Assembly: GCA_028716665.1 (NCBI GenBank)
Contig: JAQUPP010000001.1
Span: forward strand, 555,073 to 619,072
Direction of reading: 5' to 3'
DNA: 64,000 nucleotides
From: Patescibacteria group bacterium
GTDB lineage: Bacteria; Patescibacteriota; Patescibacteriia; UBA2591; JAQUPP01
Under the pieces are notes generated by a model, which saw only the letters and a program-made list of their open reading frames with translations, was not told where the DNA came from and ran no database searches. The position numbers and the translations under genes were made by a program. Every line of letters starts with the position of its first letter. The first letter of the stretch is position 1. Below are positions 1-61,200 of this stretch, one piece after another.

Positions 1-3000
1 GCCGGACAAGTTGGTTTATCAAAACCGGAAGAAACAATTACGGAAAATTTTTCCAGCACAACCAAGCGCGATGCCGCTCAAACTACGGCTGATTGGAATA
101 GCGGTACCAACGAACTTACTTTAAAGAAAACAATTACGCCAAGGATAGTTGGTACTTATGATACTCCGGCTACTGCTTATGATGTGGCGATTTCCGGCAA
201 TTACGCGTATGTGGTGGATTATAATCAAGGCTTAGAAATTTTTGATATTTCCACCCCTAGTACTCCGATTTTAAAGAGTAAATTAACCAGCGTAATGGAT
301 GCTTATGGTATTACTATATCAGGCAATTATGCATATATAGCCGGTAATGATTGGGGTTTTTGGATCGTTGATATTTCAAATCCTTTAAGTCCAACCTTAG
401 TTAAACGATATTATCCATGGGGCAGTAATACTTTAAAAGTGGATGTTTTAGGTAATTATGCTTATATAGCTCATGGTGGTGAAGGTTTAAGAATTGTTAA
501 TATCACAGATAGAAGCAATCCTTCAGAAACAGGTTTCTATGACACAACAGGTTCTTGTTATGATGTTAAAGTGCGTCAAGTCGGCGGAAATATTTATGCC
601 TACGTGGCTGACGGAGCACCCGGGTTATTGATTTTTGACGTAACCAATCCGGCCAGTCCGGTTCTTCTTGATACTCTTGATACTGAAAATGCCCGTGATG
701 TTTATGTTTCAGGTGATTACGCTTATGTCAGTGATGGAAATTATTTTAGAATTCTTGATGTTTCTACACCGTCTGATATTAAAGAAAAAAGTATTATAGA
801 TACTTTGGATGGCACTGAAGGAATTGATGTCAGCGGCAATCGCGCTTATCTTGCCAGCCATTCTTATGGAGTGCAGATTATTGATATTACCGATAAATCA
901 AATCCAAGTAAAATATCAATGGTTGATACCCCTCAATATCTTACTGATGCTAATAATTCCGCTTATCAAGTTGCAGTTTCCGGCAATTACGCGTATGTGG
1001 CAAATGGGAATAATATTGGACTCGTGGTTATTGATGTGAGTGAACCGTTTTCGCCGAATTTTTCCGAAAGTTTAAAAACTTTATCCGACAGCCAAGGCGT
1101 TTATGTCTCCGGCGATTACGCGTATATGGCTGAAGGTTATCAAGGACTTCATATTTATGATATAACCGGTGATACGCCAAGTTATGTCGGCAGTTATGAT
1201 ACACCCGGTTATGCTCGCGATGTTTATGTCAGCGGCGATTACGCTTACGTGACAGACAGTGATTGGGGTTTGCAAATTATTAATATTTCTATTCCTTCTG
1301 CGCCAAGTTTTGTCAGTTGGTATAATACTCCGGGTACTGCTTACCAAGTCGTGGTTGATGGTGATTACGCGTATGTAATTGATGCTACTACTTTGCAAAT
1401 TATAAATATCAGCAATAAAGCTTTATTAACCTTAACCGGTTCTTATAACTGTCCCGATAATGCTTATGGTTTGGATAAAGTTGGAAATTATGTTTATGTA
1501 ACCGGTTATGGTCAAAATCCAAGTTTTTCCGCGGTAAACGTAACCAATCCGGCCAGCCCTACATTAGCCGGTTCGTATAATGGCAGCGAATATGGCAATC
1601 AAGCTTATGATGTTAAAGTAAAAACAGTTGGCGCTTCAACTTACGCCTTTTTAGCTTCTTATAATTATGGTTTTCAAGTTTTAAATATTACTAATTTAGG
1701 TTCTATCTCTCGCGCTACTTATTTATATAGTACAGAAACGAGTTATGGTATAAGACTATTCCTGTCCGGCAATTATGCTTATCTTGCAAATGAAAGAGGA
1801 GGATTGGAAGTAATTGATATTTCTAATCCGGCCGCAATAAATCGCCAGCAAAAAATAGACGTACCTGATTATGTAATGGATGTGATGATTGACGGAGATA
1901 ATGCATATATGGCTGCGCGTTCTTCCGGACTTCAAAAAGTTAATATTACTCGGCCGGCTTCATTGTCTTCCACGCCAACCAGTGATTATGGTCGTGAAGT
2001 TTTTGTCAGCGGCAACTATGCTTACATGGCGGAAGAAACCAATAGCAGTTTAAGTATTTTTGACATAACTGATAAAACCGCGCCGGTATTTTTATCTAAT
2101 AAAGATTTAGCAGGCACTTATTGCAATGATGTTAAGGTTGTCGGCAGTTACGCTTACGTTTCCTGTTATGACGCCGGTCTTTATATTGTTGATGTTTCCG
2201 ATCCGGCCAATCCTGTTTATAAAGGCGTTTACAATACACCGAGTTATGCTTATGAAGTAATAGTTGACGGCAGTTATGCTTATGTGGCTGATTACACCAC
2301 TTTGCAAATTATTAATATTTCTGATCCGACAAATCCAACGCTTACAGGTTCATATAATTGTTCCGATTATGCTTATTATTTGGACAAAGTCGGCAATTAT
2401 GTTTATATAACCAGCTATAATCAAAATCCAAATTTAACAATAGTTAACGTAACTAATCCGGCCAGTCCGACTCTGGCTGGTTCTTTATATCAAAATGATC
2501 GTCAGTTAAATGGTATTAAGGTTAATGGCAGTTATGCTTACGTGGCCTATAGTGCTGCTTCCGGCGGAGTGGCAGTTTATAATATTTCCAATCCGGCTTC
2601 TATTTCTAAAACTGGTCAATGGGGTTTGAATGATTCAACAACCAATAGCAGTTTTATTACTTATAGCAATAATAAAGTTTATTTGTCAGCCGGCACCGGG
2701 GGTTTGCATGTGGTTGATGTAACTACGGCGGCCACTCCTGCTTATGTCGGGACTTTTGATACCACCAATACCGTGCGCGGCAGTTATATTTCCGGCAATT
2801 ATCTTTATTTTTCAGATTACATAGGCGGATTGAAAATTTTGGATATTTCACAAACCATGGGAGCGCCAACTTTGGAAGGTTCTCTCGACACGCCCGGCAA
2901 TTCTTATCGTTTGGATAAATTGGGCGATTATGCTTATGTGGCGGATTACAGCGGTGATTTAAGAATTATCAATGTTTCCAATCCGGCTTCGCCTTCGGCA

Positions 3001-6000
3001 ACCGGCAATCTTTCTTTAACAGGCAACAGTTATGATGTTAAGGCAAAAGTTCAGGGCAGCAAAACTTACGCTTATGTTGGAACAGATCAACTCGGACTTC
3101 AGATTGTAGACGCGACTACGCCGGCCAGTCCTACATTGGCGAACTCGGTTAATATTGGAAGCAATATTTATGGAGTTGAGCTTAACAATAATTATGCTTA
3201 TTTGGCCAGTGATACCGGAGGTTTAAATATCGTTGCTATTGGTGGGACAAATGGTTCGGATTCTGCGCAAGAATCTTCTGATAATGAAACTTTTCCATAT
3301 AAAAAATCAATTGCTTTGACCGGAGCCGGCGACGCCAGTACGAATTATCAAATTATGGTTAAGGTCGGTTATAGCAGCGCCGCAACAGGAGTAAATTTAA
3401 CGTGTTCCGGTAATTGTCAAGCCGATTTTGACGATATCAGATTTTATGATAATGACGGTGTGACAGAACTTGATTATTTTAAAGAAACATACACTTTGGG
3501 TGATAAAGCCACTTTTTGGGTGGAAGTAAAAGATAGTTTGTCCAGCGGACAAAACCCGACCATATATATGTATTATGGCGACAATGATGCCAGCACCACT
3601 TCCAGCGGCGCCAATACTTTCCCGTTATTTTTTGATGATTTTACCGGCACAACAATTGATACCGGAAAATGGAGCGAAACAGATACATCCAGTAAAATCA
3701 GTCAAAGTGATAAAATTGTTGTTACCGGCGGCGCGGGTTGGGGAAATACCAGTTTATACAGTGTGAGTGATTTTGCCAGAGCTGATAATTTGGAATTATT
3801 ATTTGATTATAAACCGACTGGCGGAACTTCTGTAATGTTTGGTTGGAAAGATAGCACTTCCGGCAAGAGCTATACGGATTTAATTTATTCTTTCTATGAT
3901 ACTAGTGATACAAATCGTATTTACGAAGACAATGGTGACAGAGGACAATTTTCCGGTGGTTGGATCGCCAATAACACTTATAAAGTCAGAATGCCGTTGA
4001 AAACCGGTGGCGGAGCAAAATATATGCGCAGTACTGATGGCGGACGAACATGGGTATTAAATTATGATTCTTCGTATTCCACTGAAGCGACTGAAAAAAT
4101 CGGTTTTATTAATTCTGATGCTGCTTATGAGATTGATAATGCTTTTATTCGTAAGGTTTCTTCTGCTGATCCGAAAATAAATAATTATATTTATAATGCC
4201 GGCGGTTCTGATTTAACAGAGCAAGCTTCGGGTAACGGAGATTTTCCATACAAAAAAACCATTGGTTTATTGGGCCAGGGTGATGCGGGAACGAATTATC
4301 AAATTGAAATTAAAGTTGGTTATGCTCCTACAACCAATGGAGTTAATTTAAGTTGTTCCAGCCATTGCCAAACTGATTTTGACGATATCAGATTTTATGA
4401 TAATGATGGTACGACCGAATTGGATTATTGGCGAGAAACTTATACTGCTTCTGATCAGGCCACTTTTTGGGTAGAAGTTAAAGATAGTTTGTCAGACGGT
4501 GAAAATCCGAATATTTATATGTATTATGGAAATGAAACGGCGGATACCGCTTCTAATTCCGCTAATACTTTTACTGAAACAAATCCTGACACATTTGATG
4601 TGGGAAGCTGGCACATGGAAGAAGGTTCTGGATCTACTACTGACGATGCTTCTGCTAATAGTAATACAGCCACTATTAATGGCGCGACATGGACTTCATC
4701 TGGGAAATTCGGGAACGCGCTAGACTTTGATGGAGCTGATAATGTCAGTGTTCCTTCAAGTTCTGAATTAAGCCCAACAGACGCGATTAGCGTGGAATTT
4801 TGGATTTATCCAAAGGGTCGTTATTCGGATTGGGGAAATATTATTTATAAATCAGGCAGTTATGGTCTTAATTGGGAGGGTTGGAATGCAAGAATGAGGT
4901 GGACAATAGGCGCAAGTTGCGGCGGCAGTTGGGGTGGAGGAGGTCTCCCCACTTTAGCCTATAATACCTGGACTCATGTCGTGGCCACTTATGATAAAAA
5001 TTTACCCAGCAATCAGATGAATATGTATTTTAATGGTGTTGTTGGCGAAACTTTAACCTGTACTAATGCTATTCCTGTTAATTCCAATGCTCTTGTAATG
5101 AAGATTGATAACAATATTCCTGTGGATCAATCAGAAAGATTAGATGAAGTAAAAGTTTATAATCGTGCTTTATCTGCCGATGAAGTTTCATCTTTATATA
5201 ATTATAACTTAATTAGAACTCGTAAGTCTTCTTCTGTTGATCCGGAAGTGGCTAATACTATTTCACCGTTTACACCCGAAATAATCAGTTCTTTTGATAC
5301 GCCGGGTAATGCTTGGGATGTGAAAGTGAAAACTATTGGCGCTGTAACTTATGCTTTTGTGGCAGATTATTCCGGCGGCGGATTAAGAATTATCAATGTA
5401 ACCGATCCTGCCAATCCGGTTGAAGTTTCATCAATCGGTTCCGGAAATACTTTTAGATCAGTTGATGTTGTTGGTAATTATGCTTATTTGGCTCTTGAAG
5501 GCAGCGATCTTTATATTTATGATATTTCCAATATAGCTGTTCCTTTTTTTGTCGGTAATTACAGTATAGTAAATTATGAAGCTTACGATATACAAGTTAT
5601 CAGTAATTATGCTTATTTGGCTAACAGACAAGGAGGTTTGTATATAATAGATGTCAGTAATCCGTATCGGCCGGGCATGGTCAGTCAATATAACACTTAT
5701 CCGGATTATACTTGGGGGTTGATTGTTGAAGGGGACTACGCTTATTTGGCTACTTATACTACTGGTTTAAAAATAATTGACTTAGGTGATTTATCACCGC
5801 CGGTTCAAGTTTCAACTACAATGGCAGTTGGAATTAGTAATGCTCAAGATGTGGCGGTTTCCGGTAATTATGCATATGTGGCGGAATACAATTGGGGATT
5901 AATAGTTATTGACGTCTCAAGCACAAGTACACCAAGCATTGTCGGGTCAGCTCAATCTTTTGGTAATCCATATGCTATTACAGTGGACGGCGATTACGCG

Positions 6001-9000
6001 TATGTGGCGAGCCAGAATAGAGGTTTGGAAATATTTGACATTTCCGATCCGACAGCGCCGATTTTAACCAAATCTTATATTTGGACGGGCAGCGGTTCGG
6101 TTTATGATATTGAAGTAATTGGCAATTATGCGTATCTTGCCAATTATACTTATGGTATTAAAATAATTGATATTACTGATAAATATAATCCACTTTTAGT
6201 CGGCAGTGCAGGCGTAAGTGGAAGCGCAGCCGGTATTGATATACAAGGTGATTATGCTTATGTCACAGACTATGGTGCTTATATGCATATTTTTAATATT
6301 TCCAATAAAACTTCGCCGCAATGGATAAGCAGTTATAATATTACCGGAGGTCAAGGCTTGGTGTGGAGAATAGCTGTTTCCGGCGATTATGCTTACGTGG
6401 CTGACAAAGGATATAATTTATATATTTTTAATATTGCCGACCCATATAATATCGCGCTTGTCGGCACTCTTGATTCTGACATATCAGGACAGAGTGACAG
6501 GGGTGCTTTAAATCTTTTTGTCAGCGGTACGCGTGTTTATATTGCGGATTACACTCGCGGTCTGCAAGTAATTGATATCAGCGATCCGACTGCTCCTTAT
6601 ATTTTATCTTGCATTGACAGAGTTAAAGATAATCAATTGTGGGCTGGAGCTTATTTTGGCGGAGTTATATCTGTATCTATCTCCGGACATTATGCTTATT
6701 TGATTGACACTTTAAGGGGTCTTTGGATTGTTGACCTTGATCAATTATCAGAAACACCGGCAGTGAATACTGCCAGTGGCGGTTATGTGACAGATATAGA
6801 AGTGCAAGGAGATTATACTTATGTTTTGGCGAATAGCAGTGCCGGGAGCGGTTCAACGGCATTTTCTGTTTTATCAATTTTTGATACCAGTACCAATCCG
6901 GCCACTTTAAAGAGTCGAATAAAAATTTATGATGCTTTGGGGATAACGGTCAGTGGTAATTATGTTTATGTGGCAAATCTTGGCAAGGGATTATTAATTA
7001 TTGATGTTTCAAATAAATCTGCTCCGCAGGGAGTCGGCGTTTATGATTCAACCGGTTCTACTTATGACGTGGCGGTCTCAGGAAATTATGCATACTTGGC
7101 GGATTATTCCGGCGGATTTAAAGTAATTGATATTTCTACTAAAACCAGCCCGGTTTATAAGACAGTTATTAATACAGGTGTCGCAACCCAGAGAGTTCAA
7201 GTAAAAGGCAATTATGCTTATGTGACTGATGCCACTACCGGTTTTCATATTATTAATATTACCACCCCCACTTCGCCTTCAGAAACAGGTTCAACTTTAC
7301 CGGTCAATGCTCATTATGACTTCTTTGTTGAAGGAAGTTATGTTTATGTCGGCGACAATACATCGGGTCTAACAATATACAACATTTCCAATCCGGCCGC
7401 GCCTTATTTGGTTGGTACTTATGATACCATGGGTAATGTTTATGACGTAAAAGTTTCCGGCGGATACGCTTATATCAGCGATTATGGCGGCGGACTTTTA
7501 ATTTTGGATGTTTCAATTCCTTCATCGCCGGCTTATGTTGGTAACTACATCAGCAAAAGCTCAACTTACAGACTTTTTGTCAAAAGGAATAAAATATATT
7601 TGGCTACGCAATATCACGGCGTGGAAGTTATAAATTTAAAAACACAAAATTCAAACGTTGTTTCAACCGGACTTGATACTTTGGCTGCTCCGATTTTAAA
7701 AGGTTCTTTAACCGCCACTGACACTGAGCCGACCGGCACTTCTATTACTTATTATTTAAGTGTTGATAACGGCACTACTTGGGAGGCAATTACGCCTGAT
7801 GGCAGTGAATATACTTTTACCGCTTTTGGTTCTGATTTAAAATGGAAGGCGGTTATGACCACTGATGATTCAACAATAACTCCAACTATTTCTCAAGTTG
7901 TAATTTGGGCTTCAACCGGAATGAGCAATACCGGTTATCTTATTTCTTCGGTTTTTGAGCAAAAATCTCCAAATTTTGCTTGGGAAACCATAGAATGGAC
8001 TGACAACGAAATACAAACTACAAGAGTAAAAGTTCGTACTGACGAGACTGCCGATATGGCCACAGCCACGACTTGGACAAATTGTCCATACGCGGTAGAC
8101 GAAGGCGATCTTGGCGATTTATCTTCTGTTTCCTCAACTCAACCTTATATCCAATATCGTCTTGAATTCGCCACTTCGGATATTGATGAAACTCCGATTC
8201 TTAGCGATATTGATATAACCTCAGCGGTTTATGCCACCGCGACTTATGATTATAGTCAAACTAATCCGGTTGGTTGGTATCACATTGATTGGGTTAATTC
8301 CGGCGGCACAGACACGGCTGTAAAAGTTAGAACTAAAGAAGCGGATACTCAAGAAGGATTAGACGATGATACTTGGAGTGATTGGGTAACTACCAGCGGC
8401 CAAGATATCAGAGAAATGGCCAGTCCGACAAAATGGATCAGGCTTGAAGTTCAAATAGAAACAAGAAAAAATAATGTTTCACCGATTCTGGAAAGTTTAA
8501 GTCTTTTTTACGCGGTCAATGTTACGCCAACAGTCTCAGAAATTTCGGCTCAGGAAAACGAAAATGGAGTGGTTCAAATTTCTTATACAGTTTTAGACGA
8601 GGACAGTGATAGTATTAGCACAACTTTTCAATATTGGGATGGTGATTCTTGGGAAGATTGCGATACCACTACGGGTGAAGGCAGTCATGATGTCACTCCG
8701 GGTTTGCAGACAGAATTAACCGGCACGTGGAATGTAAAAACAGATTATAATAATCAATATCTTGCCAATTCTCGCATTAAAATTATTATTGATGACAGTT
8801 CGCCTTATTTAAATCTTGGCGAAGATCAATCTACTACTTTTGTAATTGATACGAAAAAACCGACTACTCCGACTTTAAGTATTAACTCAGGCGCAGCGAT
8901 TACCAACTCTTTGTTTGTAACTTTAACTCCGGCTTGTGTTGATGACAGTGATTTAAAAGTTCAGTTTTCCAATGATGATTTAACTTATGGCACGGTCACC

Positions 9001-11928
9001 AATGTTGAAGGCGTGATAACTAATTCCGGCGAATGGGAGGCCAAGAGTATTGGTAAAAGTTGGATAATGAAAGCAATTGACGGCAGCACAAGAACAGCTT
9101 GGTTTAAATGTAAAGATATTTATGGCAATCAATCCGATACCGGCGGTTCGGCGACCATTAATTACGATACAGGTTTGCCCGGAGTAGTTGATAATGTCAG
9201 TATTGCCGATGCGTCAAATGAATATGTAGAACGTTATGCGTTGACTATTATGTGGGACGCTCTTAGTACTGAAGACAATCCTGATTTTTCAGCTTACAGT
9301 ATTGAGAGATCAACTGATGGTGTAACTTATTCACCGGCAGCCAGTATAAGTGATATCACCACTTCTGTTTATACCAATATCGGTCTTTCCAAAGATATTA
9401 CTTATTTTTATCGCATTAAATCAAAAGACACGGCTGATAATTATTCTTTACCTTCAAGTGTGGTTTCTTATCAACCGGCTTCGGAAGACGATATTCCCCC
9501 GGCTTTAACCGGCGGCTCTCCGGTTGCTACTTCGCACGAAGATTATGCCTTATTCACTTGGGCGACTGATGAACCTTCTGATTCTCACGTGGAATATGGA
9601 ATTATTTCCGGGACTTACACTTCCATGCAAGGTAATGACACTCAAACTGTTTCTCATTCAGTTCAGGTTTATGGATTAAATCCTTTAACCACATATTATT
9701 ATCGTATCAGATCCAAAGATGCCTCTGGTAATCCTTTGGTTTCTCCGGAATACTCTTTTATTTATTGGCCCCCTGAACTTGACGACATTCCATCTATTTC
9801 CGGAGAACAAGCTCAATCTCCGTCGGCTGTTGGCACTGAGGTAACTATTACTTGGATTACTGACAAATATACCACCAGTCAAGTTTACTATGGTTCGACT
9901 CAAACCGGAACTTGTGGAGAACTTAGCAGCTATACCACGGAAGATACAACTTTAAATAAATCGCATACCGTTTTATTAAGAAGTCTTCCTTATGACACTA
10001 CTTATTACTATTGCACACGTTCCAAAGATACTTACGATCATATCACTTGGGGAAGCATGAGAAATTTCACTACTGAAGCAGAACCAAGTCCGGATGACAC
10101 AACCGCTCCGGTTATTTCTGAAATCAATTCGTATCCCACAGAAACGCTTTGCACGATAATTTGGACCACTGATGATTCCGCCAATTCTCAAATTGAATAT
10201 GGTTCAACCACTGCTTACGGAACTTCAAGCACTCTTGATTCAACTTTAACCGCCAAACACGTGGTTCGCTTGACTGATTTAACCACTGAACAAGTTTATC
10301 ATTATCGAATCAAATCAAAAAATGCGGCCGATCTTGAAACCGTTAGCCAGGACTATACTTTTACTCCTCAATATGTTTCTCAGGAAGTAAGAGTGATTAA
10401 TGCAGGAGGAGGAGGCAGCGCAGCTGTCCCGACCAAAGACACAACTTCTCCGGTTATCAGCAACATATCTGCGTCTTCAATCAGCGACAACAGCGCCAAA
10501 ATTTCTTGGACTACTGATGAAAATGCCACCAGTCTAATTAGCTATGGTTTAACCACTGATTACAGTAATTATGTCTTCAGTGATATGACTAGCTTAATCA
10601 CTTCGCATCAAATCACTCTTTCCAATTTGACCAAGTCCACCGTCTATCATTATCAAGTCCTATCTCAAGACGCTTCGGGTAATCTTGCTCAAAGCGCTGA
10701 CGCCGTCTTCACCACTTTAAGTGTATCGGGTGGAACCACCCCGACTCAGGAAACCACGCCTGAAACTCCGGTTACTCCGGAAACACCGGTTGAACCAACA
10801 ACACCAATTGAACCGACTCCAACTCCTGTTACCGCCATAGATCAATCTTTTGTCACGGCCATGGAAGCAGCCAGACAAATCTCCACTCAAGTTACCGGAC
10901 CGGTTCTTGAAACAACTTTCCAGAATTTCTTGAACACTTTGAAAGACATCACGCCGGGTTTGTCGCTTGAAGCAGCTCCTGAGATTGAGATCTCAGCCAC
11001 TGACGCGATTATCAAATGGAAAACAAACAAACGTTCCAACTCTCAAATCGCTTTTGCCAAAGTTGCCGATTACGACGACACCAAATCAGAACCATATTCG
11101 CAAATTGTTGGCCAATCAAATGAGAAAGAATTAAATCACAATGTTAAAATTATCAACCTGACTCCTTCCACCGATTACTATTTCCAAATTCGCTCCAAGA
11201 GCATTATCGGTTCAGAAGCAAAATCAAAAAGATATACTTTCACCACGGCTTCGCAATTGCCCGAAGTGACTAATTTCTCCATCAAAAATATTTCTGAGAG
11301 AGCAGCCACTTTTGTTTGGCAGACAAATATCCCGACTGATTCGCAAGTGAAATTCATCCCTTATCGCAACAATGAACTGGCGGTGGGCGAAGCCCAGACT
11401 GTCAGCAAATCTGATTTCAATGTGGCTCACGAAATCGCAGTCAAGAATCTTGAACCGGGCACGACTTTCAATGTTTCGCTTGAAGGAAAAGATTTGCAGG
11501 GCAACAACTATTCTTTCCTGATTCCAAACTTCACCACCACCAAAGACAAAAATGCGCCAATCATTTCGCAAATCAGAACCTCAATCGCTTTGTCATCAAG
11601 AGGCGATGAAGTCCAGACCATTATTACTTGGAATACCAATGAACCTTCAACCTCGCAGGTTGAATACCAGGTTGGATTTGGTGAGGATGCTCCGACTGTC
11701 CAAATGACCGAAGATATCAGTTTGAGACAAGAACATTTAATGGTTATTACTTCGTTTAAACCCGGATCCATTTACAGATTCAGAGTCATTTCTGAGGATT
11801 CTTCGGGCAACAAAACTCAATCAACAACCAATACTTTACTGACTCCTCAAAAGAGATTGACCGTAACCGAATTGATTTTCCAAAACTTCCAACAGACCTT
11901 CGGATGGATGAAAGGATTGGGTAAATAA
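1..11928 (+). CDS. Giant surface protein, 5'-truncated by the window edge (frame open from nt 1; track start 184 is an internal Met). About 25 LVIVD-type beta-propeller repeats, two DUF2341-like modules, a LamG/ConA-like lectin domain, a second LVIVD block, a long Fn3-like array, a Pro/Thr linker, and a conserved C-terminal three-Fn3 module plus tail.
   Basis: Frame 1 has no stop from nt 1. Repeated 'GNYAYVAD..GL.I.D.S.P..P' units match LVIVD repeats. 'DIRFYDNDG..ELDY..ETY....ATFWVEV..L....NP.IYMYYGN' appears twice (DUF2341-like). 'LDFDGADNVSVP...ISVEFWIYPKG...WTHVVATYD' is LamG-like. Many 'YYYRI(R/K)SKD..GN' Fn3/PAP-N-like units. The C-terminal 600 aa are near-identical to ORF2 and ORF3. Confidence 0.8.
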   Translation, partial: AGQVGLSKPEETITENFSSTTKRDAAQTTADWNSGTNELTLKKTITPRIVGTYDTPATAYDVAISGNYAYVVDYNQGLEIFDISTPSTPILKSKLTSVMDAYGITISGNYAYIAGNDWGFWIVDISNPLSPTLVKRYYPWGSNTLKVDVLGNYAYIAHGGEGLRIVNITDRSNPSETGFYDTTGSCYDVKVRQVGGNIYAYVADGAPGLLIFDVTNPASPVLLDTLDTENARDVYVSGDYAYVSDGNYFRILDVSTPSDIKEKSIIDTLDGTEGIDVSGNRAYLASHSYGVQIIDITDKSNPSKISMVDTPQYLTDANNSAYQVAVSGNYAYVANGNNIGLVVIDVSEPFSPNFSESLKTLSDSQGVYVSGDYAYMAEGYQGLHIYDITGDTPSYVGSYDTPGYARDVYVSGDYAYVTDSDWGLQIINISIPSAPSFVSWYNTPGTAYQVVVDGDYAYVIDATTLQIINISNKALLTLTGSYNCPDNAYGLDKVGNYVYVTGYGQNPSFSAVNVTNPASPTLAGSYNGSEYGNQAYDVKVKTVGASTYAFLASYNYGFQVLNITNLGSISRATYLYSTETSYGIRLFLSGNYAYLANERGGLEVIDISNPAAINRQQKIDVPDYVMDVMIDGDNAYMAARSSGLQKVNITRPASLSSTPTSDYGREVFVSGNYAYMAEETNSSLSIFDITDKTAPVFLSNKDLAGTYCNDVKVVGSYAYVSCYDAGLYIVDVSDPANPVYKGVYNTPSYAYEVIVDGSYAYVADYTTLQIINISDPTNPTLTGSYNCSDYAYYLDKVGNYVYITSYNQNPNLTIVNVTNPASPTLAGSLYQNDRQLNGIKVNGSYAYVAYSAASGGVAVYNISNPASISKTGQWGLNDSTTNSSFITYSNNKVYLSAGTGGLHVVDVTTAATPAYVGTFDTTNTVRGSYISGNYLYFSDYIGGLKILDISQTMGAPTLEGSLDTPGNSYRLDKLGDYAYVADYSGDLRIINVSNPASPSATGNLSLTGNSYDVKAKVQGSKTYAYVGTDQLGLQIVDATTPASPTLANSVNIGSNIYGVELNNNYAYLASDTGGLNIVAIGGTNGSDSAQESSDNETFPYKKSIALTGAGDASTNYQIMVKVGYSSAATGVNLTCSGNCQADFDDIRFYDNDGVTELDYFKETYTLGDKATFWVEVKDSLSSGQNPTIYMYYGDNDASTTSSGANTFPLFFDDFTGTTIDTGKWSETDTSSKISQSDKIVVTGGAGWGNTSLYSVSDFARADNLELLFDYKPTGGTSVMFGWKDSTSGKSYTDLIYSFYDTSDTNRIYEDNGDRGQFSGGWIANNTYKVRMPLKTGGGAKYMRSTDGGRTWVLNYDSSYSTEATEKIGFINSDAAYEIDNAFIRKVSSADPKINNYIYNAGGSDLTEQASGNGDFPYKKTIGLLGQGDAGTNYQIEIKVGYAPTTNGVNLSCSSHCQTDFDDIRFYDNDGTTELDYWRETYTASDQATFWVEVKDSLSDGENPNIYMYYGNETADTASNSANTFTETNPDTFDVGSWHMEEGSGSTTDDASANSNTATINGATWTSSGKFGNALDFDGADNVSVPSSSELSPTDAISVEFWIYPKGRYSDWGNIIYKSGSYGLNWEGWNARMRWTIGASCGGSWGGGGLPTLAYNTWTHVVATYDKNLPSNQMNMYFNGVVGETLTCTNAIPVNSNALVMKIDNNIPVDQSERLDEVKVYNRALSADEVSSLYNYNLIRTRKSSSVDPEVANTISPFTPEIISSFDTPGNAWDVKVKTIGAVTYAFVADYSGGGLRIINVTDPANPVEVSSIGSGNTFRSVDVVGNYAYLALEGSDLYIYDISNIAVPFFVGNYSIVNYEAYDIQVISNYAYLANRQGGLYIIDVSNPYRPGMVSQYNTYPDYTWGLIVEGDYAYLATYTTGLKIIDLGDLSPPVQVSTTMAVGISNAQDVAVSGNYAYVAEYNWGLIVIDVSSTSTPSIVGSAQSFGNPYAITVDGDYAYVASQNRGLEIFDISDPTAPILTKSYIWTGSGSVYDIEVIGNYAYLANYTYGIKIIDITDKYNPLLVGSAGVSGSAAGIDIQGDYAYVTDYGAYMHIFNISNKTSPQWISSYNITGGQGLVWRIAVSGDYAYVADKGYNLYIFNIADPYNIALVGTLDSDISGQSDRGALNLFVSGTRVYIADYTRGLQVIDISDPTAPYILSCIDRVKDNQLWAGAYFGGVISVSISGHYAYLIDTLRGLWIVDLDQLSETPAVNTASGGYVTDIEVQGDYTYVLANSSAGSGSTAFSVLSIFDTSTNPATLKSRIKIYDALGITVSGNYVYVANLGKGLLIIDVSNKSAPQGVGVYDSTGSTYDVAVSGNYAYLADYSGGFKVIDISTKTSPVYKTVINTGVATQRVQVKGNYAYVTDATTGFHIINITTPTSPSETGSTLPVNAHYDFFVEGSYVYVGDNTSGLTIYNISNPAAPYLVGTYDTMGNVYDVKVSGGYAYISDYGGGLLILDVSIPSSPAYVGNYISKSSTYRLFVKRNKIYLATQYHGVEVINLKTQNSNVVSTGLDTLAAPILKGSLTATDTEPTGTSITYYLSVDNGTTWEAITPDGSEYTFTAFGSDLKWKAVMTTDDSTITPTISQVVIWASTGMSNTGYLISSVFEQKSPNFAWETIEWTDNEIQTTRVKVRTDETADMATATTWTNCPYAVDEGDLGDLSSVSSTQPYIQYRLEFATSDIDETPILSDIDITSAVYATATYDYSQTNPVGWYHIDWVNSGGTDTAVKVRTKEADTQEGLDDDTWSDWVTTSGQDIREMASPTKWIRLEVQIETRKNNVSPILESLSLFYAVNVTPTVSEISAQENENGVVQISYTVLDEDSDSISTTFQYWDGDSWEDCDTTTGEGSHDVTPGLQTELTGTWNVKTDYNNQYLANSRIKIIIDDSSPYLNLGEDQSTTFVIDTKKPTTPTLSINSGAAITNSLFVTLTPACVDDSDLKVQFSNDDLTYGTVTNVEGVITNSGEWEAKSIGKSWIMKAIDGSTRTAWFKCKDIYGNQSDTGGSATINYDTGLPGVVDNVSIADASNEYVERYALTIMWDALSTEDNPDFSAYSIERSTDGVTYSPAASISDITTSVYTNIGLSKDITYFYRIKSKDTADNYSLPSSVVSYQPASEDDIPPALTGGSPVATSHEDYALFTWATDEPSDSHVEYGIISGTYTSMQGNDTQTVSHSVQVYGLNPLTTYYYRIRSKDASGNPLVSPEYSFIYWPPELDDIPSISGEQAQSPSAVGTEVTITWITDKYTTSQVYYGSTQTGTCGELSSYTTEDTTLNKSHTVLLRSLPYDTTYYYCTRSKDTYDHITWGSMRNFTTEAEPSPDDTTAPVISEINSYPTETLCTIIWTTDDSANSQIEYGSTTAYGTSSTLDSTLTAKHVVRLTDLTTEQVYHYRIKSKNAADLETVSQDYTFTPQYVSQEVRVINAGGGGSAAVPTKDTTSPVISNISASSISDNSAKISWTTDENATSLISYGLTTDYSNYVFSDMTSLITSHQITLSNLTKSTVYHYQVLSQDASGNLAQSADAVFTTLSVSGGTTPTQETTPETPVTPETPVEPTTPIEPTPTPVTAIDQSFVTAMEAARQISTQVTGPVLETTFQNFLNTLKDITPGLSLEAAPEIEISATDAIIKWKTNKRSNSQIAFAKVADYDDTKSEPYSQIVGQSNEKELNHNVKIINLTPSTDYYFQIRSKSIIGSEAKSKRYTFTTASQLPEVTNFSIKNISERAATFVWQTNIPTDSQVKFIPYRNNELAVGEAQTVSKSDFNVAHEIAVKNLEPGTTFNVSLEGKDLQGNNYSFLIPNFTTTKDKNAPIISQIRTSIALSSRGDEVQTIITWNTNEPSTSQVEYQVGFGEDAPTVQMTEDISLRQEHLMVITSFKPGSIYRFRVISEDSSGNKTQSTTNTLLTPQKRLTVTELIFQNFQQTFGWMKGLGK
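10075..11928 (+). repeat. Conserved 3' gene module, copy 1 of 3, inverted relative to copies at 53355..55200 and 61368..63210. Encodes Fn3-like domains plus the C-terminal tail.
   Basis: Protein stretches such as 'FTTASQLPEVTNFSIKNISERAATFVWQTNIPTDSQVK' are 100% identical between ORF1 and ORF2. Spot nucleotide comparison of 11236-11350 against the reverse complement of about 53940-54060 gives roughly 90% identity. Boundaries are approximate. Confidence 0.7.
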
Positions 11929-11948
11929 ATCTTAAAATAAAAAATATA

Positions 11949-12356
11949 ATGTATTTATTAATTAATAATTTGGAAGAAAGCAGAAATTATTTGGCTTTAA
12001 TAATGGACAAGTCCGCGAAAAAATATTTTTTTTTAACTTTGAAAAACAAAAGAGGACAAGACAATAATATTTTGAAAGGATTGGACAATCTTTTATCAAA
12101 AGTAAATAAAAGATTAAAAGATATTAAGGGTATTATTGTTGTTAATGGTCCGGGCTCATTTGTCGGCATTAGGGTGGCCTTGTCAGTGGCGAATACTTTG
12201 GCTTGGTTGTTAAAAGTTCCCGTGGTCGGCCTTAAGAATGGAGAGAAATTTAATTTGATTAAAATCGGAATTAAAAAATTAAACAAGAAAACAAAAACAG
12301 TCAGGCCGTTTTATGGGAAACTGCCAAATATAAGCCAACCTAAAGAGTTTTGTTGA
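11949..12356 (+). CDS. tsaB: tRNA t6A biosynthesis protein TsaB (YeaZ)-like, short form of 135 aa
   Basis: 'IIVVNGPGSFVGIRVALSVANTLAWLLKVPVVGL' matches the TsaB/YeaZ N-terminal signature (GPGSFTGLR). It lacks the C-terminal half of canonical TsaB. Confidence 0.5.
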   Translation: MYLLINNLEESRNYLALIMDKSAKKYFFLTLKNKRGQDNNILKGLDNLLSKVNKRLKDIKGIIVVNGPGSFVGIRVALSVANTLAWLLKVPVVGLKNGEKFNLIKIGIKKLNKKTKTVRPFYGKLPNISQPKEFC

Positions 12357-12409
12357 AAATTTAGAGGTTGGAAGCCGAATAAATTTTTACTACAAAACCT
12401 TTACCACCT

Positions 12410-23613: not shown

Positions 23614-23627
23614 TTTAAAAAATAAAT

Positions 23628-53354: not shown

Positions 53355-55200
53355 TTATTTACCCAATCCTTTCATCCATCCGAAAGTCTGTTGGAAGTTC
53401 TTGAAGATAAGTTCGGTTACAGTCAATCTTCTCTGCGGAGTCAGTAAAGTATTGGTCGTTGATTGAGTTTTGTTGCCCGAAGAATCTTCAGAGATGACTC
53501 TGAACCTGTAAATTGAGCCCGGTTTAAAGGAAGTGATAACCATTAGATGTTCTTGTCTTAAACTGATATCTTTAGCCATTTGGATAATTGGAGTGTCATT
53601 AGCAAAGCCGACTTGATATTCAACTTGCGAAGTTGATACTTCATTGGTATTCCAGGTAATGATAGTTTGGACTTCGTCGCCTCTTGATGACAAAGCGATT
53701 GAGGTTCTGATTTGCGAAATGATTGGCGCGTTTTTGTCTTTGGTGGTGGTGAAGTTTGGAATCAGGAAAGAATAGTTATTGCCTTGTAAATCTTTTCCTT
53801 CAAGAGAGACATTAAAGGTCGTGCCCGGTTCAAGATTTTTGACTGTAATCTCATGAGTAATACTGGAATCAGATTTGCTAACTACTTGAACTTCATTTGG
53901 AGATAATTTGTTGTTGCGATACGGAATGTATTTCACTTGCGAATCAGTCGGGATATTTGTCTGCCAAACAAAAGTGGCCGCTCGTTCAGAGATGTTTTTA
54001 ATTGAGAAATTTGTCACTTCGGGCAATTGCGAAGCAGTGGTGAAAGTATATTGTTTAGATCTTGTTTCAGAACCGATAATGCTCTTTGATCGAATTTGGA
54101 AATAGTAATCAGTAGAAGGAACCAAATTAATAATGTTGACATTATGCGCTAATTCATATTCGCTTGATTGACCAACCACTTGCGAATACGGTTCTGATTT
54201 GGTTTTATCAAAATCAGCAACCTTGGTGATAGCGACCACACTATTTGCCTTTCTATCAGTCGTCCATTTAACTCTTGCTTCAGTGGCTGATATTTCAATG
54301 CCTGGAGAACCCTCTAATATCGGACCGGGAATAAATCCTTTAAAAATATTAGCGAGTTCTGTAAAACCATTTTCGGCAACAGACAAAGAAATAGTACTGG
54401 AAACTTTTTTAATCATTTCCATTGCCGTCGTAAATGTTTCTTGAGAAACTGTTTGTTCTTCAATCTTTTTTATCTCTTGCGCTTTTTCTTCCGGAGTTTT
54501 TTCCGCTTCCGGTTCTGTAATTTCTTCATTTTCTGTTATTTCCGGAACAGGAGGAATTACCGAACTTCCCAAAGTTGTAAAAATCAAATCAGCGCCTTGA
54601 GCGAGATTGCCGGAAGCGTCTTGGGACAAGACTTGATAATGATAGACAGTGGCTTTAGTTAAACCAGAAAGAATAGCTTGATGAGAAGTTACAAAAGATG
54701 ATAAACCGGCATGCTGAGTGTCAGTATAGGTTGAGGTTAAACCATAATCTATTAAACTATTTGCATTTTCATTAGTGACCCAGCTGATTGTGGCACTATT
54801 TTCAGTAATATTAGAAGTTAAAATATTGCTGATTATAGGGGTTGTTTTATCTATTAATGTTGCAGAACTGCCTCCTCCTCCGGCATTAATCACTCTTACT
54901 TCCTGAGAAACATATTGAGGCGTGAGAGTATAATCTTGGCTGACGGTTTCAAGATCAGCTGAATTTTTTGATTTGATTCGATAATGATAAACCTGTTCAC
55001 TGATCAAGTCGGTCAAACGAACCACATGTTCGACGGTTAAAGTTGAGTTCAAAGTGGTTGAAGTTCCGTAAGCAGTGGTTGAGCCATATTCAATTTGAGA
55101 AGTGGCCAAATCATCGGTTGTCCAGGTGATTGTGCCGATTGTTTCCGTGGCGTAAGAATTGACCTCGGAAATAACCGGAGCGGTAGCATCTACCGGCTCT
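53355..55200 (-). repeat. Conserved 3' gene module, copy 2 of 3
   Basis: See the copy at 10075..11928. Boundaries are approximate. Confidence 0.7.
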
Positions 55201-58200
55201 GCTTCTTGAGTGGTGATAAAATTATAATCGCCGGAAACACTTTCATTATCATTTGCGTCTTTAGATTTTACCCTGAAATGGTAAGTTCTGTCAGTGGTCA
55301 AATCTGTTAAGTGAATAACGTGTTGAATGGTTAATTGAGAATCAAGATCGGTTTCCGTGCCATAATCGGTGGTAGTTCCATATTCCAATTGGCTGGTTGA
55401 TAATTCATCTGTTTCCCAAGTAATAGTGGAAGTGTAAGCGGTGGCGGATGAATTAACTAAAGAAATTACCGGATCAACTTGATCATCGGCGGTAGTAAAA
55501 TAATAATAACTGCCTTGATTATTATCTTTAGCTGTATTTTCTGAAACATCTGTTGACTCAACATAAAAATAATAAATTACATTCGGATAAAGACCGGTTA
55601 AATTTATAACATGAACAGTGTTTAAAGTTTCATCTGTTTCTTGCTGAGGATTGCTTAAATTTGAAGTAGTGGAATAAACCACTTTGGAATCAGAAGCTGT
55701 ATCAGTAAGCCATCTGACGGTAACTTTTTCATTTACGACGGAAGAAATAATAACATTGGAAATAATCGATCCGGCTTTAGTTATAAACGAATAATCATTG
55801 GACTTAGTTGTTTCATTTTCGGCCGCGTCTTTTGATTTAACCCTGAAATAATAAGGAGTATTTTTAGATAATCCGGTTAGAACAACCGAATGACTTGTTA
55901 CCATTGAAGTGGAATTTTTACTTAAAGAATAAACTCCCGGAGTGGCCGAATATTCCACGGTGGAATCGGACAATTCGTCAGTGGTCCAAGTAATAGTCGC
56001 TTGATTTGTAAAAATAGAAGCGCTTGGCACTTCAGGAGTTGAAATAGTCGGACCGGTTAAATCTCCTTCGCGGGTTGGAGTAAATGTATAATCCGCGGAA
56101 ACGCTTTCATTATTATTCGCGTCTTTTGAATAAACTCTGAAATGATAAGTGGAACCGACAGTCAAACTGCTTAATTTGATAACGTGATCAATGGTAAGGT
56201 CGGTTGTTGTTACCGAGGACGGACTTAAAGTTCCGTAACCATCCGTCAAACCGTATTCAACCTGGCTGGTGGCCAATTCGTCAGTTTCCCAAGTAATAGT
56301 GGAAGTGTAGGCCGTGGTAGACGCGGAAACTTCATTAATAATCGGCGGAGTCAAGTCATAGGTGGTATTAAAAAAATAATAATCAGAGGCATTGTCATTA
56401 ATGCCGAGATTGATAGAAATATCATAAGATTTAACATAAAAATAATAGCGAGTGCCGGGCGTTAAAGAAGAAATTTCCACTGAATGTTCATAATAATCTT
56501 CGCTGTTCGGAGTAAGAACTCTGGTTTCCGTGCCATGCGTTAAAGAACCGGATAAATCTGAGCTGGTGGAATAAACAACATAAGAATTTGAAGAAGTATC
56601 CGTGAGCCAAGTAATTTTTGCCGTACTATTATTAATTTGAGAAACAGAAACATTTGTCAAAGTTGGACCGGGAAGTGTCGTAAAAGTATAATAAGCATTG
56701 GAATGATTATCAACGGTTTCATTATTGCTTGGATCTTCTGATTTTACCAAAAAATAATATGGAGTGTCTTGCGTTAAACCATTTATGGTAAGAGAATGCG
56801 ATGTTCCCATGGTCGGAAGATTGACATAAGTAAAAGTTTCTAAAACTTCAGACGTGGAATAACCGACCGTTGAATCCGAAAATTCATCCGTTGTCCAAGT
56901 TATAGTTGCTTGAGAAGTATAAACATCAGTAGAAGTAACATTGGAAACAGTCGGCGCCGTAATATCAGTGCCTCCCCCGCCTTCACCGGAATCTTGAATG
57001 CCATTTGCCTTGCCGGTAATGGCATTGGAACGATAAGAAATATTATTTAAAGAATCATAAGCGATAATTTTATAATAATGGAGAACATTATAATCCGGCG
57101 TAGTGTCCGTATAATAATTGGTTGTCTTAACATTAACCGTGCCGACTTCCGTAAAATCAGCGTCATTAGTAGTATTTGAACGCAAAATGGAATAATGATC
57201 AAATATTCCTTGAGGCGGATCATCTATTACTTCCCAGGCAATAAAAAGCCGATATTCATTGGGCGTAATTCTGACATTTGAAGTGTCTTGGGTCATAATG
57301 CATGCCGGAGTTGCCGGAGTAATTACTGACGCAGTGGCGGAAACATTTCCTTTGGCGTCTTTAAATTTAACATAAACAGTATCCGGATTATCAGCCAAGG
57401 TGATTGTTGAAGCAGTGTTGTATGTTTGATAACTTGCGCCGGAAAATCCGCTGTCCAAAGAAATCATCATAGAGCCCTTGACGCCGGATTGCATCGTGCT
57501 GTCGGTGGCAGACAAGGTTAAAGTTGCCGCGTTAGAACCGTATTGTGTTGAAGCATTAACTTTAATACTTGGGCTGGCCGGATTTATTGTGTCTAATTCA
57601 AAAGTTGAAGATTCCAAAGTGGCGGTGTTGTAAACCAATTCAAGATCATTGGCTGTAACTTTAATTTTCATTCCATTGGCAGTGTATTGATTATTGTAAT
57701 CTGTTTTTGGATCCCAAGTGCCGGTGTAAGTCGTCCAATCAGTAGCCGGAGAAGTAGCCACATTTTTTACTCCTTCACCGGTTGTAGTCGTTGCTTCTTG
57801 CCATTCATCTCCATCCCAATATTGAAAAGAAATTGTTGCTTTGCCCTGATGGGCTTCTTCACCATCATTGGTATCAGTATCGCGGACTTGATATGAAATA
57901 TTTACCAAGCCATCCGCGCCTTGCGAAGCAGTTAAAGTTTGAAGTTCAGGAGAAGCATTTATTGAATAACTGACAGTAAAATCGTTAATTGTCGGACTTG
58001 TGCCGTCAATCGTACTTTCTAAATATGCTTCTGCTTCGCACCAGCGATTAATTCCTGAAGTAATATCGGCCGGAGAAGAAGTGTACCAATCTGACCATGA
58101 AGCTCCGGATAAACCGCCTTCAGTGGCAGCAGTACGAGTTCTGAATTTAACCAAAGTACCGGAAGGAACAGTCGCGTTCCAAGAAATTGTATTCCAACCG

Positions 58201-61200
58201 GCATCACCGCCGGCATCTTTTTTAAGATTAGTAATGTTGCCGAAATAAAGAAGAGGATAATAATAAAAATCAGTTGTACCTCCATGTAAAGCATAAATAT
58301 TTGTTCCATCATAAGCTAAAGCACCGCCGTCATTAATTGCCACGCTTGTTGAAGATAAGGTTGACCAAGAATTGCCGGAAATATTATATTTGTAAAAATT
58401 AGAAGTATTTCCTCCGCGCAAAGCATAAATATTTGTTCCGTCATAAATTAACGAACCGCCGGCTCCAACCGCACCGGTAATGGAAGTCATAGCACTCCAA
58501 GAATTTCCGGAAATATCGTAACGATAAAAATCCGTGCTGCTTCCGCCGCGCAAAGCGTAAATATAATTTCCTGCTCTTACCATTGCTCCGCCCGCGCCAA
58601 TCACGGCAGAAGGTTGGGCTAAAACTTCCCAGCCAAGCGAAGAAAGACTTATGGAATTTGAACCAGAAGATAAAGTATTATAATCATTTAATGTGCCGGA
58701 AGAATTATACCAATTGGTATTGTCCGGAGAAAATTGAAGTTTAAGAACAGAATCAGCCGGAATTGAAGAAGCGTTGTAATCAAAAGAATCAACACTGCCC
58801 TTTAAGCCAGATAAAAGATTAGTTGAAGTTAAAGTGCCGGAAGAATAATAATATGGAGAATACATGTTGTCTATATAGAAAGTATTATCCGCGTCGGCAT
58901 TAACTATGGTAATCACCATACTGTCTATCGCGTCTTTATTGGCATTAGACACGGCTGATATATCCCAAGAAACTGTTTGAAAAACATTTGCCGAAGTAAT
59001 ATTGGGCGTAATTTCCGTAGTCGTTCCGCCAGAATCATGCATGCTTATTTTTATATTGCTTCCTGTTCTTGTAGAACGAATATCAAAATAAATTAATGAT
59101 TTATCGGTTAAATCTATTGTCGGCGAAATTGTGCGAGTAAGAGTTTTATTTAAACTGCCTGTTATCGCCGCTGATCCTTTTAACGCGTAGGTTCCCTGAG
59201 ATTTAATTGTAGATTCAGAAGATGACTGTAAAGAAAGAAAATCTGAAGTTAAACATCTTATTACCACTATTCCTGAACCTCCGGCACCGGCAGCACCACC
59301 ACTATAAGCACCGCCTCCACCACCGCCGCCGGTATTTGGCGTTCCTGATTGAGCGACAGTATCATTACAAGTTCCGTTTCCACCTCCGCCATTGCCACCA
59401 AGACCAGGATTATTTGAATAAGCAGTTCCATATCCGCCGCCTCCACCGCCGCCAGCATAATAAACATTAGTTCCGCTTAATACTATGTCATATGCAAGTC
59501 CAACTCCTCCGCCGGATGTTCCTCCTTCACTCCTTGATGTGCTTCCTACAGCTCCAGCTCCGCCGCCACCGCCGCCGGTAAAAGGGTTTGCATAATAAAG
59601 ATCAGAAGAACCTCCTCCATTATTTCCTTGACCAGAAGTGCCTGCTCCACCGGGAACTAATTGATAGTTACCTTCTTGTCCGCCTCCACCTGAACCACCA
59701 CTTTTAGGAAGTCCCCACGTGCTAGCTCCGCCGCCGCCTCCACCGCCTATTGCAGTTTTTGTACTAAAAACAGAATTTTCGCCATTTCCACCAGCGCTAT
59801 TGCCACCCGTAGGTCCTTTGACACCGCCAGCGCCAACTGTAATAGGATATGCTTGCGCGGTAATTGCAAAATTTGCGTCATAAATTAAACCTCCTCCTCC
59901 ACCGCCGCCAGACATTCCTTGACCACCTCCACCACCGCCGGCAACTACAAGAGTTGCTACATTAGCAGCTTTTGTAGAAGTAAATGTTCCTGATGAAGTA
60001 AATTTATGAACAGTATAATTTCCATTTGTAGTTATCGTTCCACCGGTATTGCCATAAGTGGCATTTGTTACATACGCCGCTTGAGCAAGTGAATTGGAAG
60101 AATATTCCATATAATCAATAGTTACTGCCGATGTATCAAGTTTTATTTGGCCATTTCCCGCGTCAATAACAGTATTTGATTTACTGGCCACTTTGGTTTC
60201 ATCGGTAAAACTATCAGAAACAGAACTGCCGCTATTATAATTAATGGCAATACTGTCCAAAAGCGGAGCGAGATTTTGAGCCGGATTTGATTGAAGAGTT
60301 GTTTTGTAATAAAAACCCGCGCTTCCTGTCCAAAAATTTTCACTGATATCATATCTATAAAAATCAGCAGTGCCGCCGCCGCGCAAGGCATAAATATATG
60401 TTCCGTCATAAGTTAATGAACCGCCGGTTCCAACTGTACCAAGAACAGAAGTCATTGCACTCCAAGAATTTCCGGAAATATCGTAACGATAAAAATCTGT
60501 TGTGCTTCCGCCTCTTAAGGCATAAATATATGTTCCGTCATAAGTTAAGGCTCCTCCTGCGCCAATTGCGGCTGTAACAGAAGTCATTGCACTCCAAGAA
60601 TTTCCGGAAATATCGTAACGATAAAAATCCGTGCTGCTTCCGCCGCGCAAAGCGTAAATATAATTGCCGACTCTAACTGATGAACCGCCGGCACCAGTTG
60701 CACCGGTTATGGCAGTTAAAGATGACCAGACACTGCTAAACGCTGCGTCTGATAATTTAATATCGCCCTCTGAAGTAGTTGTGTCTAATTTTGTTATCGT
60801 CCCTGCTTCCCAATTAGCCTTGGAAGTTACTGTCCAATTATAAGTTGCCGCTTTGGAAAAATGAGGAAAATATTGAACGCTGTTTGTAACAATCAAACCA
60901 ATACATAATGTTACGGCAATAATTCGGCTGATGCCCAATTTTACCAATGATTGGCGGAATTGTTTTTCTAAAATAAAAAATCGCTTTTGTAAAGCAATAA
61001 ATTGTTTTTGCAAATCAAAATATTTTTCTTTCCAATCTAAATTCTCCGACGCTTCAGTCGGAGCCCCGACCCTTCGGCGTCGGGATTTTATTTTTATCGG
61101 CTCGGTTGAGACGATTGATTTTATATACCAACCCGAATAAATTTTTTTGCAAGATTTATCTTTTTTTATATGAATTAAATAAAAAAATCTAAATTCTTTT

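Follow-up and report, generated by a model that had tools for sequence, protein, structure and literature searches.

How the giant surface proteins of Patescibacteria are retained at the cell is the question raised by a 64,000-nucleotide stretch of a Patescibacteria group genome (contig JAQUPP010000001.1 of assembly GCA_028716665.1), hereafter the window, in which three very large proteins, P1, P2 and P3, finish with nearly the same peptide of about 33 residues. Putative adhesins of this kind, >1500-5000 aa in size, rich in Fn3, DUF2341 and LamG domains and carrying a signal peptide or transmembrane (TM) segment, are described in two papers, where they are thought to mediate host attachment and to reshuffle their domains (PMC11809585, PMC13059738). 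An earlier note on this DNA had taken the shared peptide for an export, sorting or attachment tag. The peptide closes a C-terminal module that defines a family of Patescibacteria surface proteins, giant, Sec-exported and as yet unannotated, whose N-terminal payloads are freely exchanged. The tail is tentatively read as a helix that docks or anchors this conserved stalk module non-covalently by its cell-proximal end, with a MacB/FtsX-type permease, on the analogy of FtsX, as the leading candidate partner; this is the best placed of the readings considered, rather than a probable one.

The three genes and the relevant parts of their products are arranged as follows.

1..11928, plus strand: giant protein P1, its 5' end cut by the window edge, at least 3975 aa; LVIVD propellers, DUF2341, LamG, Fn3 array, tail
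53355..61295, minus strand: giant protein P2, 2646 aa, the sole complete one of the three; N-terminal leader containing a single hydrophobic segment, Kelch and Gly-rich domains, Fn3 array, tail
61368..64000, minus strand: giant protein P3, its N-terminus cut by the 3' window edge, at least 876 aa visible
10516..11925, plus strand: the family's common C-terminal module as it occurs in P1 (~470 aa), comprising Fn3, a Pro/Thr-rich segment, a helical linker and, ahead of the tail, three Fn3 domains
11536..11847, plus strand: terminal Fn3 of P1, ending ...TNTLLTP and so taking in the first 7 aa of the tail as originally delimited
11827-11925, plus strand: 33-aa tail of P1, with the stop codon at 11926-11928
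11848..11925, plus strand: true C-terminal extension of P1, 26 aa, QKRLTVTELIFQNFQQTFGWMKGLGK
11863..11901, plus strand: predicted amphipathic alpha-helix of P1, VTELIFQNFQQTF, followed by an invariant Gly (kink) and Trp
53358-53456, minus strand: 33-aa tail of P2, TNTLLTPQRRLTVTELIFKNFQQTFGWMKGLGK, its 26-aa extension at 53358-53435
61371-61469, minus strand: 33-aa tail of P3, TNTLLTPQKRMTVTELIFKNFQQTFGWMKGMGK, its 26-aa extension at 61371-61448

P1 and P2 have differing N-terminal halves, followed in both by arrays that Pfam assigns to Fn3 or Pur_ac_phosph_N-type domains; 33 LVIVD repeats, DUF2341 and LamG are matched in the N-terminal half of P1, whose full-length ortholog, P0004, has 4773 aa. 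P3 lies in tandem with P2, upstream of it. The consensus end of the three proteins is TNTLLTPQ[KR]R[LM]TVTELIF[QK]NFQQTFGWMKG[LM]GK, and the tails are 88-97% identical over 33 residues, far above chance. The earlier note's observation is confirmed, although its start at 11830 in P1 was one codon late, 11827 being correct. Aligning the terminal domain with the internal Fn3 repeats of the same proteins sets the limit of the Fn3 at ...LLTP, so that Fn3 strand G accounts for the first seven residues of the tail and the appendage proper measures 26 aa. The domain itself is matched as Fn3 by PF16656 and PF00041 and gives a seven-strand AlphaFold model with a core pLDDT (predicted local distance difference test score) >90; the top Foldseek matches of this model in the PDB are all generic Fn3 domains, and nothing informative on the helix is returned.

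The window alone cannot carry the argument much further. The ~250 aa before the tail are 80-100% identical among P1-P3, within a common cassette of ~600 aa, and the tail is only marginally more conserved than the 250 aa preceding it. The tail is therefore not the one strictly conserved part of otherwise modular proteins, as had been supposed; because the last 250-600 aa are common to all three, the window by itself supports just a duplicated cassette. The codons for ELIF, for example, differ in the three genes (GAATTGATTTTC, GAACTTATCTTC and GAGCTCATCTTT), while the amino acids are identical. This synonymous divergence with unchanged residues argues for purifying selection on the tail peptide rather than for a very recent copy, and the adjoining Fn3 behaves likewise.

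The decisive extension came from an exhaustive hmmsearch of a 33-position tail profile against 1.84 billion representative proteins (cut-off E<=1e-3), which returned 27 matches, two of them repeat artefacts (P0013, P0018). The other 25, each a protein cluster at 50% identity, have a single match apiece, ending at or a few residues before the last residue of the protein in 25 of 25 cases. The tail thus occurs well beyond the window paralogs, to which the earlier note had allowed that it might be confined. Throughout the family the motif is ungapped and in fixed register, LLTP-x5-[VI]-x2-[LI]I-x2-NF-x2-TFG[WF] followed by 4-9 variable residues to the stop. When 23 sequences are aligned, N117, F122 and G123 never vary, and conservation reaches at least 90% at I114, F118 and T121. 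This register is kept at 40-55% overall identity in distant lineages, including Candidatus Doudnabacteria and a high-GC organism. Named sources include Patescibacteria group and Candidatus Doudnabacteria, in which the proteins are annotated only as 'fibronectin type III domain-containing' or 'DUF2341 domain-containing'.

The N-terminal regions of the carriers are unrelated, comprising LVIVD propellers (P0004, P0008), a right-handed beta-helix (P0012), BNR (P0015), long Ig-like arrays (P0017, P0023), a glycine-rich region (P0021) and F5/F8 type C (P0024). All share the C-terminal ~450 aa, consisting of a GGGG/IDKTDK-Fn3, a helical linker, three signature Fn3 domains and the tail. When the last 470 aa of 14 diverse members are compared, no 20-aa stretch is better conserved than the tail (0.67-0.70; mean 0.46), figures inflated by the gathering of the members through their tail similarity; the last Fn3 is nearly as conserved.

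Other searches differed in reach. Scans of 185,579 species genomes and of Joint Genome Institute (JGI) metagenomes with the back-translated tail reach near-identical tails only, and so serve for synteny rather than breadth; they found one clade, of four metagenome-assembled genome (MAG) species and two metagenomes, with near-identical tails always behind the same Fn3 cassette, in several copies per genome and often in tandem. A 40-aa tail query against a word index nearly blind to this lineage gave no candidate, a query with the last 249 aa gave one close partial homolog and one unrelated Fn3 protein and nothing more, and a profile search of the index with 24 diverse tails found only 14 contig-end fragments, without taxonomy.

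These distributions bear on the explanation that the tail lacks a function of its own and only marks where a cassette, recently duplicated or gene-converted, comes to its end. The marginal excess of tail conservation within the window is what this would predict, but the motif holds its register in distant lineages, is always terminal and combines synonymous divergence with residue identity. The profile search largely refutes this explanation, which is now barely credible.

What the conserved peptide might be doing is suggested by its predicted structure. Two AlphaFold2 runs of the terminal Fn3 with the tail, one on a shallow alignment and one on 23 diverse sequences, both return the Fn3 followed by an amphipathic helix of 13-18 residues, in answer to the earlier note's suggestion that the C-terminal end be modelled. 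The first run places the helix at V110-G127; in the second, V110-F122 are helical, the invariant Gly interrupts the helix and a further short turn follows at 125-128. The pLDDT of the helix is ~62-82, falling to 62-65 at its end in both runs, against a confident Fn3 core (90+). A beta-hairpin formed by LTVTELIF-QN-FQQTFGWM was considered and set aside, as both runs give a helix, albeit with moderate confidence.

In the helix region the residues N, F, T, F and G vary little or not at all among family members. A hydrophobic moment of 0.40-0.47 goes together with a modest mean hydrophobicity, and the earlier description of a short amphipathic peptide is borne out; the basic-Gly end included in that description is not conserved, as the last residues of relatives vary (KNVGVKF, KGMNK, KKF, ERLGL and others). 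On a helical wheel inspected by eye, conserved residues cover nearly the whole circumference, including the polar N117, E/Q119 and T121 and the acidic position 112, leaving three free positions. Such conservation around most of the helix is easier to reconcile with a grip by protein than with a position on lipid.

Export of these proteins seems to depend on the other end. No TM segment is present in the tail (the maximum Kyte-Doolittle mean is 0.91 over 11-aa windows), and no member has a 19-aa window above 1.7 at its C-terminus. By contrast, every full-length member has exactly one strongly hydrophobic segment, near the N-terminus, with an AXA-like site 5-15 residues further on. In P2 it is as follows.

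60888..60944, minus strand: sole strongly hydrophobic segment of P2, residues 118-136, VKLGISRIIAVTLCIGLIV, followed by ...FSKA|ATY, an AXA-like candidate signal-peptidase site

The corresponding sites elsewhere are SWA|A, VQG|A, VKA|A, VFA|F and AYA|T, and P0017 and P0023 have classical short signal peptides. If the leaders are cleaved at these sites, as their sequence suggests, the mature proteins would be without a membrane span; P0017 and P0023, with classical signal peptides and no C-terminal TM segment, would then need some other means of retention. The order of payload, Fn3 stalk and tail mirrors that of Gram-positive adhesins, which are attached by the C-terminus, and this likeness is the main architectural argument for an attachment role. 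Paralogs also share a basic N-terminal leader of ~60-120 aa ahead of the hydrophobic segment, with the pattern GSILLSK..K.FRFFYLI.IK.DKS...I.S.WY.K (window 61120-61295, minus strand; L009 3287-3460; N-terminus of P0004). Both protein ends are thus conserved and the middle is swapped among paralogs.

A candidate partner emerges from the gene neighbourhoods. Genes for a long ATP-binding cassette (ABC) ATPase (420-500 aa) and a MacB_PCD/FtsX permease (~400 aa) directly flank the tail-bearing gene in five distant lineages, namely L016 (P0015), L017 (P0017), the contig of P0023, L018 (P0024) and L024 (P0028), with a gap between giant gene and ABC pair down to 3 nt. The pair is also found behind a tail-bearing gene in four genomes from the clade of the window, being directly adjacent in L009, L003/L011 and L025 and within 3.4 kb in L005/L013. 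A chance adjacency has a probability of ~1% by a rough estimate of our own, which assumes a genome of ~1000 genes and a handful of such pairs. Representative pairs lie at these positions.

10202-12692 of L009: ABC ATPase (10202-11491) and permease (11499-12692)
17332-19789 of L016: ABC ATPase and permease
7301-9965 of L017: ABC ATPase and permease
15915-18443 of L018: ABC ATPase and permease
3701-6431 of L024: ABC ATPase and permease
1271-3410 of L025: ABC ATPase and permease

These pairs are orthologous, at 37-56% identity, including an unusual C-terminal extension of ~200 aa on the ATPase that consists of two repeats ending ...GG[VI]GL[NY]..A. Among solved structures the permease, which is a component of type VII ABC systems, comes closest to B. 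subtilis YtrF (E 8.5e-29), then to MacB and LolF/C/E, with FtsX marginal. No NCBIfam equivalog passes its cut-off and no curated family claims the pair. The type VII class works by mechanotransmission from the outer face of the membrane.

Within the window's clade, the gene order of L009/L007 is gene A, gene B (tail ending VKF), ABC ATPase, FtsX-type permease, L10, L7/L12, gene C and cyclophilin; gene A is the ortholog of P3 (95% identical in L009) and gene C occupies the position of P2, the window having P3, P2 and cyclophilin in direct succession. In a small sample from this clade (L003, L004, L005, L009, L011, L013 and L025, compared with window 11908-11925), the tail of the ABC-adjacent paralog always ends ...G[VA]KF, two residues longer and with an aromatic end, and those of non-adjacent paralogs end ...G[LMV]GK, GLGR or GMNK.

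The neighbourhoods of the giant gene and the ABC pair, including the space between the two, repeatedly contain stand-alone receiver domains, a PAS-HAMP histidine kinase and TPR proteins, which hints at a regulated module. They are found on the contig of P0023 and at the following places.

258-3551 of L013: neighbours of this set
859-1242 of L025: neighbours of this set
22541-26328 of L016: neighbours of this set
18751-19059 of L017: neighbours of this set

In L018 (5595-18788) the conserved ribosomal-protein operon is interrupted between rplE (L5) and rpsN (S14) by the giant gene together with the ABC pair. In L014 (18525-21996), P0012 is followed by a 507-aa membrane protein without assigned function and a TrwB/VirD4-like coupling ATPase instead of the ABC pair. 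The idea of a second conserved neighbour was rejected, since this 507-aa protein and the 494-aa protein that follows P0008 are not detectably homologous.

The motif, its strictly terminal place and its spread, the predicted helix, the lack of a TM segment or known sorting motif and the gene linkage are observed; leader cleavage, the anchoring role and the identity of the partner are inferred from them. The N-terminal leader would send the protein through Sec, with probable cleavage at the AXA-like site, the payload would be displayed at the far end of the Fn3 stalk, and the C-terminal helix would dock in a protein partner that holds the stalk base at the cell surface non-covalently. A protein is favoured over lipid as the partner since almost every face of the helix is conserved, acidic residues occur in it and the genes are linked, and the leading candidate is the extracytoplasmic domain of the dedicated MacB/FtsX-type ABC transporter, which may retain and actuate the stalk as FtsX does EnvC, PcsB or CwlO. 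A precedent exists in exported proteins that use helical elements to stay bound to extracytoplasmic domains of FtsX type (PMC7668044, PMC6355983). As in that system, an exported protein without a membrane span of its own is encoded beside a type VII ABC pair, and the external domain of FtsEX is known to grip helical elements and to transmit ATP-driven movements.

Several observations weigh against docking on such a permease. The known FtsX partners dock through long coiled coils, where here the candidate docking element is one short C-terminal helix, and the permease is closer to YtrF, MacB and Lol than to FtsX. The ABC pair is absent from the 64-kb window, and it is missing beside P0012, P0008, P0054/P0021 and the P1 ortholog P0004, although a missing neighbour at several tail-bearing genes is expected if one transporter could serve several paralogs. 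The helix is predicted with only moderate pLDDT, leader cleavage is read from sequence motifs, and the figures for tail conservation are inflated in the way described above. Furthermore, the tail is nowhere found in the family apart from the same three-Fn3 module, and the functional unit may accordingly be the whole module. A further difference is that the proteins here are giant and adhesin-like rather than hydrolase activators, and that the ATPase carries a repeated extension of ~200 aa. The idea of an export, sorting or attachment tag thus survives in part: the peptide is under selection, strictly C-terminal and present in 25 clusters with unrelated payloads, but it is not portable. An attachment role remains plausible on this evidence.

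The docking interpretation could be taken further, though as a possibility rather than a likelihood. The tail may be the coupling peptide of an unrecognised surface apparatus of Patescibacteria, in which giant host-attachment proteins with swappable payloads would be plugged by the conserved helix into a dedicated type VII ABC mechanotransducer. This transporter, with its extended ATPase and frequent receiver, histidine-kinase and TPR gene neighbours, would anchor, actuate or release the adhesins through ATP hydrolysis.

The main rival to a protein dock is a helix lying in the plane of the outer leaflet of the cytoplasmic membrane, as in E. coli PBP5 and PBP6, which are Sec-exported and held non-covalently at the outer face of that membrane by a C-terminal amphipathic helix of ~18 residues (PMC2909392). 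The predicted helix, of 13-18 residues at the end of an exported protein without another C-terminal anchor, speaks for this reading, as does its hydrophobic moment of 0.40-0.47, and the window copies have four aromatic residues and flanking Lys/Arg. In-plane anchors normally conserve amphipathicity and not sequence, however, whereas N, T, G and E/Q are fixed here in register across distant lineages, polar and acidic residues included, and on giant Fn3 proteins. The one or two acidic residues of the consensus helix (D/E 112, E 119) would be unfavourable on anionic membranes, the mean hydrophobicity is modest, and the linkage to a transporter would be left unexplained unless a MacB-type pump extracts or inserts the helix. 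The in-plane anchor, with lipid binding as a candidate property, is considered doubtful. Ranked behind it, and given a small chance, is a purely structural element, in which the helix packs on the terminal Fn3 or on an upstream linker helix and so caps the C-terminal module. The constant company of the same Fn3 module suits such a cap, as do conservation on nearly all faces, indicative of burial, the almost equal conservation of the last Fn3 and the presence of an upstream conserved helical segment (..F..QFN.L..L...IP.P) that could pair with the tail helix. Yet a helix pLDDT of 62-82 beside a core above 90 is typical of an unpacked appendage, the internal Fn3 repeats of the same proteins need no cap, and neither the strict end position nor the cell association of proteins with cleavable signal peptides would be explained.

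Known sorting and secretion signals are unlikely counterparts. Since it forms the very end of numerous Sec-exported surface proteins in each genome, after a repeat-domain stalk and in common to proteins with differing N-terminal domains, the tail resembles LPXTG and the exosortase CTERM signals (PEP-, GlyGly-, PGF- and MYXO-CTERM). A processed signal, cleaved and covalently attached by a lineage-specific sortase or exosortase-like enzyme, would be one form of the earlier note's proposal, and a conserved 'LLTP' ahead of the helix might seem to furnish its motif; this segment aligns, however, with strand G of ordinary internal Fn3 repeats. LPXTG, NPQTN and LAXTG motifs are absent from the three window tails, Pfam has no CTERM match, and no CTERM model falls on the tail when the last 199 aa of P1-P3 are scanned with NCBIfam at E<=1, a weak MXAN_2561 match covering the Fn3 (residues 107-175) far below its cut-off. 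Likewise, Por_Secre_tail of the type IX secretion system (T9SS) has no Pfam or NCBIfam match; that signal is a beta-sandwich domain of ~70-100 aa, and the 26-aa extension is predicted helical. The earlier judgement that the tail is not of LPXTG, PEP-CTERM, T9SS-CTD or TM type is thus borne out, while the search for a cognate enzyme, which it had recommended, leads elsewhere: no sortase, exosortase, rhombosortase or archaeosortase gene is found among window open reading frames of >=150 aa, and no sortase-type gene in the flanks of ~15 related loci, where the recurrent neighbour is the MacB/FtsX-type transporter. With no signature motif, TM helix, terminal basic cluster, model match or cognate enzyme gene seen, and with an amphipathic helix of 26 aa, tied to one particular Fn3 module, in their place, covalent processing is decidedly improbable. 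A presenilin or signal-peptide-peptidase-like aspartyl protease encoded in the window (PF06550; 31335-32207, plus strand) was rejected as a processor, there being no TM substrate helix and no linkage to the giant genes. Even less credit is given to a C-terminal secretion signal, by which the adjacent ABC transporter would export the giant protein through an uncleaved peptide, as type I systems do for RTX adhesins of the LapA/SiiE type. Giant repetitive surface proteins with a conserved C-terminal peptide do adjoin ABC genes here, but all full-length members have a Sec-type N-terminal hydrophobic leader, Pfam finds no RTX repeats in the giant proteins, most paralogs are not adjacent to a transporter, and the organisms are single-membrane. 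The transporter is moreover of another class, type VII, closest to YtrF, MacB and Lol, which to our knowledge is not known to thread polypeptides from the cytoplasm.

The window has a gene content typical of Patescibacteria, its closest relatives being MAGs labelled Patescibacteria group or Candidatus Paceibacterota. It is low in GC, ~0.32-0.36 in housekeeping genes against 0.39-0.435 in the giant genes (1-12000 and 54000-64000), a rise for which amino-acid composition or a separate history could account. Three further features can be recorded.

52688-53323, minus strand: cyclophilin-type peptidyl-prolyl isomerase with an N-terminal signal/TM segment, MKKIYIILIIIVAAAMIFSVSFF, directly downstream of P2
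12585-13160, plus strand: bacterial Translin-family protein
21187-28319, plus strand: NAD salvage island with an NrtR-like Nudix regulator, PnuC, an NadR-like AAA_28 kinase, NAD kinase, nicotinate phosphoribosyltransferase (NAPRTase) and an isochorismatase-family (nicotinamidase-like) gene

The isomerase arrangement recurs in L001/L008, L006/L012 and L007, and the enzyme may be an extracytoplasmic folding helper. Translin-family genes are found close to tail-bearing giant genes in the clade of the window and again in a distant lineage, where the protein is 47% identical (L021 18800-19375; L020 12469-13038; L023 13617-14186); this may be coincidence.

Pfam and NCBIfam models, annotations and a literature search yielded nothing describing the C-terminal module, the tail motif or the transporter linkage, and the passages searched in the two papers on giant Patescibacteria proteins (PMC11809585, PMC13059738) make no mention of them; the tail family thus appears to be undescribed so far. 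Should the tail prove to be only a structural cap, it would still be a useful family marker, of modest importance. Host attachment and release by ultrasmall, episymbiotic Patescibacteria is a central open question, for which giant surface proteins are the usual suspects. Since these look non-homologous from genome to genome, the conserved module and tail offer a sequence handle on them across lineages despite the shuffling of their payloads. They also offer a concrete hypothesis for retention at the surface without a recognisable sortase-type signal, and one made testable by the candidate energised partner, the MacB/FtsX-type ABC transporter. If the tail does act as a coupling peptide, this would imply an energised, regulated attachment system in episymbiotic bacteria.

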